A stretch of 201 nucleotides of DNA from Escherichia coli (GTDB taxonomy: Bacteria > Pseudomonadota > Gammaproteobacteria > Enterobacterales > Enterobacteriaceae): NCBI RefSeq assembly GCF_003334785.1, contig NZ_QOWV01000098.1; one strand, 5' to 3'. The translations under genes were made by a program, and so were the position numbers. How positions within the stretch are numbered: position 1 is the stretch's first letter; each line of letters opens with the position of its first letter. Below, in pieces: positions 1 to 201 of the stretch. The notes under the pieces were generated by a model. It saw only the letters and a list, made by a program, of their open reading frames with translations. It did not search any database and had not been told where the DNA came from.

Positions 1-45
1 CCTTTCACGGCGGTAACAGGGGTTCGAATCCCCTAGGGGACGCCA
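1..45 (+). tRNA. gltT/gltU/gltV/gltW family (spacer tRNA-Glu): tRNA-Glu (anticodon UUC), 3' partial: anticodon loop through 3' CCA, 5' portion truncated by the window edge
   Basis: Seen in sequence: anticodon loop CTTTCAC with TTC at 4-6; anticodon-stem 3' arm GGCGG at 9-13; T-arm GGGG-TTCGAAT-CCCC at 20-35 with the canonical TTCGAAT T-loop; acceptor 3' arm AGGGGAC at 35-41; discriminator G at 42; encoded CCA at 43-45. The segment matches the enterobacterial tRNA-Glu sequence as I recall it. Established knowledge: enterobacterial rrn operons carry tRNA-Glu (or tRNA-Ile plus tRNA-Ala) in the 16S-23S spacer. Confidence 0.93.
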
Positions 46-79
46 CTTGCTGGTTTGTGAGTGAAAGTCGCCGACCTCA

Positions 80-117
80 ATATCTCAAAACAGACTGTTA
101 AGTCTTGTTTGATATAT
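80..117 (+). promoter_or_regulatory. boxB-like imperfect hairpin immediately upstream of boxA (rrn antitermination module, spacer copy)
   Basis: Seen in sequence: 5' arm ATATCTCAAAACAGACT (80-96) pairs with 3' arm AGTCTTGTTTGATATAT (101-117) around a GTTA loop (97-100). Paired by eye: 96-101, 95-102, 94-103, 93-104, 92-105, then an AT-rich lower stem with one or two bulges or mismatches. Its position directly 5' of boxA matches the boxB-boxA arrangement known in rrn leader and spacer regions. Confidence 0.55.
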
Positions 118-118
118 T

Positions 119-131
119 TGCTCTTTAAAAA
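119..131 (+). promoter_or_regulatory. boxA transcription antitermination element (binding site for NusB/NusE in the rrn antitermination complex), spacer copy
   Basis: Seen in sequence: TGCTCTTTAAAAA at 119-131, matching the rrn boxA consensus TGCTCTTTAACAA at all but one position. Established knowledge: a second boxA lies in the 16S-23S spacer downstream of the spacer tRNA in enterobacterial rrn operons. Confidence 0.78.
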
Positions 132-159
132 TCTGGATCAAGCTGAAAATTGAAACACT

Positions 160-177
160 GAACAATGAAAGTTGTTC
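160..177 (+). other. Small spacer hairpin (6-bp stem, 6-nt loop) in the pre-23S leader region
   Basis: Seen in sequence: GAACAA (160-165) pairs perfectly with TTGTTC (172-177) around the loop TGAAAG (166-171). Function not determinable from sequence; it lies in the region that contributes to precursor rRNA processing structures. Confidence 0.4.
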
Positions 178-201
178 GTGAGTCTCTCAAATTTTCGCAA
201 C

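Follow-up and report, generated by a model that had tools for sequence, protein, structure and literature searches.

A hairpin-boxA element in the 16S-23S spacer of Escherichia coli rrnG, very probably the spacer copy of the rrn nut-like antitermination site

In the rRNA operons of E. coli, the rrn antitermination complex is nucleated by nut-like elements found in both the leader and the 16S-23S spacer (PMC8632103). Both regions carry boxA and boxB, in reversed order, and RNA polymerase (RNAP) is modified at the boxA of each (PMC6614797), with NusA, NusB, NusE, NusG, S4 and SuhB responsible for the modification at leader and spacer (PMC6614797, PMC8632103, PMC10250234). The boxA consensus, UGCUCUUUA, is recognized by NusB:NusE (PMC6614797); recognition by the heterodimer extends over 8 nt of boxA, and a double-stranded RNA-binding surface lies contiguous with the boxA site on the protein pair (PMC3177189). 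NusB-NusE binding and Nus-dependent read-through of Rho-dependent terminators are attributed, for the E. coli leader and spacer boxA, to Berg 1989 and Pfeiffer & Hartmann 1997, as these studies are cited in PMC6614797 and PMC8632103. A second set of elements sits upstream of the 23S gene, and boxA is both necessary and sufficient for factor recruitment (PMC10250234). The rrn boxB is regarded as non-consensus and not required for antitermination, and its presence has been called 'puzzling' (PMC6614797, PMC10250234). It is dispensable under most conditions (PMC8632103), and deletions of the leader boxB have little effect (PMC10250234). The literature on the rrn nut-like site treats boxC as an accessory element that is likewise not required. 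The leader boxA also contains an ACA triplet that is a reported target of MazF (PMC12541390).

The window analyzed here, meaning the whole 201-nt stretch of DNA, shows 100% identity to E. coli K-12 MG1655 and to ~1,000 further E. coli chromosomes. The MG1655 match lies between clpB and kgtP, which identifies it as the rrnG operon, in the 16S-23S spacer 3' of the tRNA-Glu gene gltW. The MG1655 annotation starts the 23S gene 29 nt past the window end, and the boxA site is located within the rRNA operon transcript, after gltW and upstream of 23S. The RefSeq tRNA-Glu occupies 4970-5045 in a locus numbering where the window is 5001-5201. The Rfam tRNA model gives a 5'-incomplete match, and ARAGORN reported no tRNA in the window because the window edge cuts gltW. 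The features of the window are collected in Table 1. We conclude that positions 79-131 very probably form the rrn nut-like antitermination site in the spacer of K-12 rrnG, in which a conserved hairpin abuts a single-stranded boxA. The earlier note on this DNA had read the segment as a spacer antitermination module, and that reading is supported both by its location and by the spacer boxB-boxA site already published for these operons (PMC6614797, PMC8632103, PMC10250234). The spacer boxB-boxA site of rrnG is already well described; factor binding and antitermination by this particular copy are inferred from the literature on E. coli rrn operons.

Table 1 Features of the window and hairpin types of the K-12 16S-23S spacers.
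Feature	Position	Strand	Basis	Sequence
3' part of tRNA-Glu (gltW), CCA at 43-45	1-45	+	RefSeq annotation ending at 45; Rfam tRNA 1-42	
Small conserved hairpin, loop GUGAAAG at 61-67	52-76	+	MFE folds of 46-131 and 46-201	
Hairpin at the 'boxB' position of the spacer nut-like site	79-118	+	MFE fold, covariation	
Stems of that hairpin	lower 79-83/114-118 and 85-89/108-112; upper 92-96/101-105	+	fold	
Spacer boxA, core UGCUCUUUA at 119-127	119-131	+	motif match, 7/7 K-12 spacers	UGCUCUUUAAAAA
5' leader of pre-23S rRNA, Rfam RF01830 StyR-44	123-201	+	cmscan; cut by window end	
Hairpin type of rrnB/C/E spacers				...CAAAACTCATCttcgGGTGATGTTTGAG...
Hairpin type of the rrnG spacer (window)				...CAAAACAGACTgttaAGTCTTGTTTGAT...
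Hairpin type of rrnA/D/H (Ile/Ala spacers), entirely different				ACTTCAGAGTGTACCTgcaaAGGTTCACTGCGAAGT

Inspection of the boxA segment locates TGCTCTTTAAAAA at exactly 119-131 on the plus strand, a single mismatch away from the leader boxA TGCTCTTTAACAA, and a boxA match at ≤1 mismatch arose in none of 200 dinucleotide-preserving shuffles. The core agrees with the rrn consensus at 9/9 positions and the extended motif at 12/13, such that the element fits UGCUCUUUA(ACAA) and the near-consensus boxA proposed earlier for this position stands. All seven MG1655 rrn operons were retrieved and every boxA was extracted. Each of the seven leaders carries AACAA (TGCTCTTTAACAA), located 144 nt before the 16S gene in 7/7 operons, and each of the seven spacers carries AAAAA (TGCTCTTTAAAAA). 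The motif TGCTCTTTAAMAA is found just 4 times in a 44 kb stretch of the K-12 genome, once in each leader and each spacer of the rrnB and rrnE operons. Position 11, where spacer and leader differ, falls outside the 9-nt core, and the C-to-A change is for this reason unlikely to alter recognition.

To extend the comparison across species, one genome per species was scanned for a tRNA-Glu 3' end followed, after a gap of 55-85 nt, by TGCTCTTTAA. This yielded 119 loci, a sample and not a census, which is preselected for TGCTCTTTAA within 55-85 nt of tRNA-Glu and cannot gauge how often boxA is absent. The loci are mostly from Enterobacterales, together with Zobellella, Oceanimonas and Oceanisphaera, with E. 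coli and Salmonella absent from the set. Spacer boxA in this sample reads AACAA at 61 loci versus AAAAA at 56. The AAAAA form is found in Enterobacter, Citrobacter, Klebsiella, Kluyvera, Leclercia and other Enterobacteriaceae, as well as in Rosenbergiella and some Providencia, whereas Pantoea, Mixta, Tatumella, Xenorhabdus, Photorhabdus, Morganella, Edwardsiella, Zobellella, Oceanimonas and others carry AACAA. For 18 operons of other genera, a leader and a spacer boxA stand on one locus, ~1.9 kb from each other, and the leader copy is AACAA in all 18. Enterobacteriaceae spacers typically have A for C, which cannot be said of spacers at large; the earlier statement that this variant typifies spacer copies holds for the K-12 spacers and this family and fails for the genera that keep AACAA.

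Two loci of the scan bear labels from outside the Enterobacterales, namely a Chryseobacterium mucoviscidosis contig (coverage 1.5) and an Oxalobacter MAG, and each contains an Enterobacteriaceae-type Glu spacer; the former matches the E. coli rrnB-type sequence exactly. Contamination or mis-binning in the public assemblies probably accounts for these spacers.

The remaining short motifs of the rrn site were also sought. No boxC (TGTGTGGG, ≤2 mismatches), the alternating GU motif, was found downstream of boxA in the window, and the sole matches, at 54-63, are at chance level. The ACA triplet is absent from the spacer boxA owing to its AAAAA sequence. One ACA is present at 90-92, in the internal loop of the rrnG-type hairpin, and is missing from the rrnB type; further copies are located at 16, 155 and 162.

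The segment directly upstream of boxA folds into a hairpin at 79-118, which is the minimum-free-energy structure of 75-135 at -10.8 kcal/mol. Shuffles of the same segment average -4.25 ± 2.07 kcal/mol, giving the hairpin a z of -3.16, with 1/200 shuffles as stable. The structure has a 5+5+5 bp stem, which is interrupted once by a C84/U113 mismatch and once by a 2x2 internal loop, and ends in a GUUA loop at 97-100. Its G+C content is 25% and its probability of being paired is ~0.9 in every context folded. The outermost pair is A79-U118, and U118 touches U119 of boxA, leaving a gap of 0 nt. The AT-rich hairpin that had been described as immediately preceding boxA is thus confirmed, and the start given for the module, position 80, falls one base inside the outermost pair, an immaterial slip among otherwise correct coordinates. 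An inverted-repeat finder (seed 6) did not pick up the hairpin at 79-118 because its arms are interrupted, and the thermodynamic fold was used instead.

Folding also addresses whether boxA is accessible to its binding partners. The mean probability of being unpaired across 119-131 is 0.96 in 75-135 and 0.95 with upstream RNA only (46-131), which represents the co-transcriptional case; boxA is predicted in silico to be single-stranded in the nascent RNA. Larger local contexts lower this value to 0.62-0.73, where the 5' half of boxA (120-127) pairs weakly with 134-143. In a cofold of the pre-23S leader with the 3' end and trailer of 23S, a long-range helix starts at A130/A131-UCUG and 119-129 remains open, with a mean probability of being unpaired of 0.78. 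The models thus predict a boxA that is largely single-stranded, and the sequestration that the earlier note had named as grounds for refutation is not predicted. From ~130 on, the window forms the leader side of this predicted leader-trailer helix of 23S, and boxA is predicted to sit exactly at the 5' edge of this 23S processing helix. Sequestration of boxA by the 23S trailer was considered and rejected, with only A130 and A131 entering the predicted helix.

We then asked how well the hairpin is conserved. Among the sampled loci, 96 distinct tRNA-Glu-to-boxA segments had enough flank, and 96/96 fold to a hairpin upstream of boxA. An alignment was built from 85 distinct Glu-type spacers, of which 84 are those among the 96 segments with the Enterobacterales-type hairpin and one is the window. 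RNAalifold recovers the hairpin from these 85 sequences, with compensatory double changes at 11/12 pairs. Counting covariation on the 17-pair stem taken from the window's own fold, standard pairs occupy 94.0% of cells versus 81.6% in column shuffles, where 0/500 were as high. Slid controls, in which the 3' partners were moved by 1-3 columns, pair in 24-44% of cells. Double changes are seen at 13/17 pairs and in 142 cells, as compared with 11-45 cells in the slid controls. The pairing is kept by covariation, and the hairpin is therefore a conserved structure across operons and species; the lack of covariation that the earlier note said would refute its reading is not observed. In upstream-only folds, the distance from the helix end to U1 of boxA is 0, 1 or 2 nt in 51, 31 and 3 of the 85 spacers, respectively. 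The loop is variable, with 41 UNCG and 5 GNRA loops among the 85 and no conserved loop sequence. Within this set the window hairpin is the least stable, at -10.5 versus a median of -16.0 kcal/mol, because of the C84·U113 mismatch.

The Glu-type spacers of Erwinia sp. S63 and Dryocola boscaweniae contain a hairpin of the K-12 Ile/Ala-spacer type (TACTTCAGAG...GCGAAGTATT), which suggests that the hairpin module has been exchanged between spacer types. A separate small hairpin (52-76) directly follows tRNA-Glu. Its GTGAAAG loop is unchanged in 29 diverse Enterobacterales spacers, and compensatory changes are found in 6/7 of its predicted stem pairs across the same 29 spacers. This hairpin is part of the spacer architecture, separate from the boxB-boxA site, and we know of no named function for it.

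Comparison of the K-12 operons reveals that each boxA, leader or spacer, is preceded by a hairpin-forming segment, and that the spacer hairpins belong to three unrelated sequence types (Table 1). The rrnB/C/E spacers are identical to rrnG in boxA and the downstream flank, and they have its lower stem (AUAUCUCAAA/UUUGAGAUAU) and its general hairpin shape. Above the lower stem the sequence is swapped with pairing kept, the upper stem and loop reading CAGACU-GUUA-AGUCUUG in rrnG versus CUCAUC-UUCG-GGUGAUG in rrnB/C/E. In addition, G113 of rrnB/C/E is U in rrnG, producing the C·U mismatch, and the hairpins fold at -10.2 kcal/mol in rrnG versus -15.8 kcal/mol in rrnB/C/E. A sister E. coli allele (for example in ST866, 08_4358) has G113 and C77, with a perfect lower stem and -16.6 kcal/mol. 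The rrnG-type hairpin allele is carried by ~1,750 of 5,426 complete E. coli genomes (about a third), usually once per genome and in one operon, and the exact rrnG-type hairpin is present in ~1,046 of those ~1,750 genomes. Spacer boxA lies 111 nt from the 23S start in rrnG and rrnD versus 120 nt in the other five K-12 operons, and the pre-23S leader therefore differs in length by 9 nt.

Among the closest described systems is the E. coli rrn leader nut-like site, a boxB-boxA-boxC arrangement downstream of P2 that is used in rrnG-based rrnTAC studies. The leader and spacer sites share a hairpin 5' of a single-stranded boxA, the UGCUCUUUA core and the same operon, and according to the literature the same factors (PMC6614797, PMC8632103). 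They differ at position 11 of boxA, which is A in the spacer and C in the leader. The hairpins are unrelated in sequence, with 25% G+C in the spacer versus 68% in the leader, and stand 0 nt from boxA in the spacer versus ~3 nt in the leader. The leader site has a boxC, whereas the spacer boxA is followed in the window by no GU motif of this kind. Unlike the leader site, the spacer site is upstream of 23S, right where the leader-trailer helix predicted for 23S begins.

Lambda nutL and nutR (boxA-spacer-boxB) are comparable in that a NusB-NusE-bound boxA with a nearby hairpin nucleates a Nus-factor complex that renders RNAP termination-resistant (PMC4807359, PMC8632103). The rrnG site has the opposite order to lambda, its hairpin directly preceding boxA on the 5' side. 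In lambda, N binds a boxB with a short stem and a GNRA-like pentaloop, in contrast to the rrnG hairpin, an AT-rich stem of 15-17 bp capped by a GUUA tetraloop. The rrn system uses no host N protein, and the literature has SuhB and S4 take part instead. The description of the rrnG hairpin as 'boxB-like' is therefore apt for its position and hairpin shape but does not extend to the stem and loop features of a lambda boxB.

One alternative explanation concerns the hairpin. The hairpin could act mainly in processing or stability of the RNA, either as a barrier or recognition feature for nucleases that mature the 3' trailer of tRNA-Glu or the 5' leader of pre-23S, or as an insulator that keeps the tRNA and the leader strand of 23S apart during folding, such that only boxA antiterminates. 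Its location, with the tRNA on one side and the leader strand of the 23S processing helix on the other, suits such a role, as does its strong structural conservation by covariation, given that the rrn boxB is held to be non-consensus, unneeded and 'puzzling' (PMC6614797, PMC10250234). A hairpin that covaries when boxB is unneeded for antitermination must have some selected function. The 0-2 nt spacing in 85/85 spacers nonetheless ties it physically to boxA, the same hairpin-then-boxA order recurs in all K-12 leaders, and NusB-NusE presents a double-stranded RNA-binding surface contiguous with its boxA site (PMC3177189). On balance we regard a chiefly processing or insulating hairpin as unlikely, and note that a processing role for the hairpin is compatible with the antitermination explanation of boxA. 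We are aware of no nuclease site at the spacer hairpin.

Two further explanations deny that the segment is an antitermination signal. Rfam would assign part of it to a small RNA gene of its own, since StyR-44 (RF01830) matches 123-201 at 91.8 bits versus a gathering score of 54 (E 2.7e-15, cmscan; 3' end cut by the window) and overlaps the last 9 nt of boxA. This overlap with the boxB-boxA site is confined to 123-131; the model takes in none of the hairpin, and hairpin and boxA core together fall for the most part outside it. The match moreover sits within the primary transcript of rrnG, with mature 23S starting 29 nt further on, coincides with the leader strand of the predicted leader-trailer helix, and is accompanied by 0 promoter-like and 0 terminator-like sites in a scan of the window. 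An independent StyR-44 gene in place of a cis-acting signal is accordingly very improbable, and RNA detected from this region would more simply be a by-product of pre-23S processing. The StyR-44 model begins within boxA, at CUUUAAAAAUCUGG, and takes in its 3' two-thirds, so that this curated 'sRNA' family amounts to the pre-23S leader. Other weak Rfam matches, among them 6S-Flavo, mir-8315, DnaX and STnc410, are far under their gathering scores and were dismissed as chance. The hairpin together with the U-rich UUUGCUCUUU might alternatively be a weak intrinsic terminator or pause signal within the operon, an idea invited by the 5 U among the 8 nt (119-126) directly after the hairpin. The terminator scan found no such site, the stem is AT-rich with a mismatch and an internal loop, the U-run is interrupted, and the G+C-rich stem followed by a U-run that defines an intrinsic terminator is absent. 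The element also precedes the essential 23S gene in all seven K-12 operons, and the U-rich tract is the invariant boxA itself, which leaves a terminator or pause signal scarcely credible.

Returning to the spacer nut-like site, the literature suggests the following course of events. As RNAP leaves tRNA-Glu and transcribes 79-131, the hairpin would fold and UGCUCUUUA would be exposed for binding by the NusB-NusE(S10) heterodimer. NusA, NusG, SuhB and S4 would then join, such that the rrn antitermination complex is formed or re-formed on RNAP. The complex would resist Rho-dependent termination and pausing across the ~2.9 kb untranslated 23S gene. The 5' leader would meanwhile be held near the RNA exit channel, which is thought to favour the 23S leader-trailer helix that is cut by RNase III. 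The likeliest role of the hairpin would be that of a local structure which keeps upstream RNA from pairing with boxA and displays boxA beside a helix. Its direct contribution to antitermination may be small, because the rrnG copy ranks last in stability among the 85 and deletions of the leader boxB have mild effects (PMC10250234).

The conservation of both the helix and its 0-2 nt abutment to boxA in 85/85 spacers, for an element deemed dispensable, leaves room for a real role. Speculatively, the hairpin could be a double-stranded RNA partner for the NusB-NusE surface beside the boxA site (PMC3177189), or an insulator guaranteeing exposure of boxA at the 5' edge of the 23S leader-trailer helix. 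It may also be speculated that, because the Enterobacteriaceae-specific C-to-A change removes the ACA that MazF targets in the leader (PMC12541390), the 23S-proximal site might resist MazF. The joint proposition, that the spacer hairpin has a real role and that the 23S-proximal boxA is MazF-resistant where the leader boxA is not, strikes us as rather doubtful.

The element is a case of correct annotation rather than discovery. By analogy with the described rrn sites, it would mark where the rRNA antitermination complex assembles or is reinforced before the 23S gene, and a boxB-boxA site explains the invariance of this stretch within a fast-evolving spacer. To the published description the present analysis adds quantitative evidence that the spacer hairpin covaries, the restriction of the AAAAA boxA to certain clades and the destabilizing mismatch in the K-12 rrnG copy. 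These additions may provide useful background for dissecting the role of the rrn boxB.
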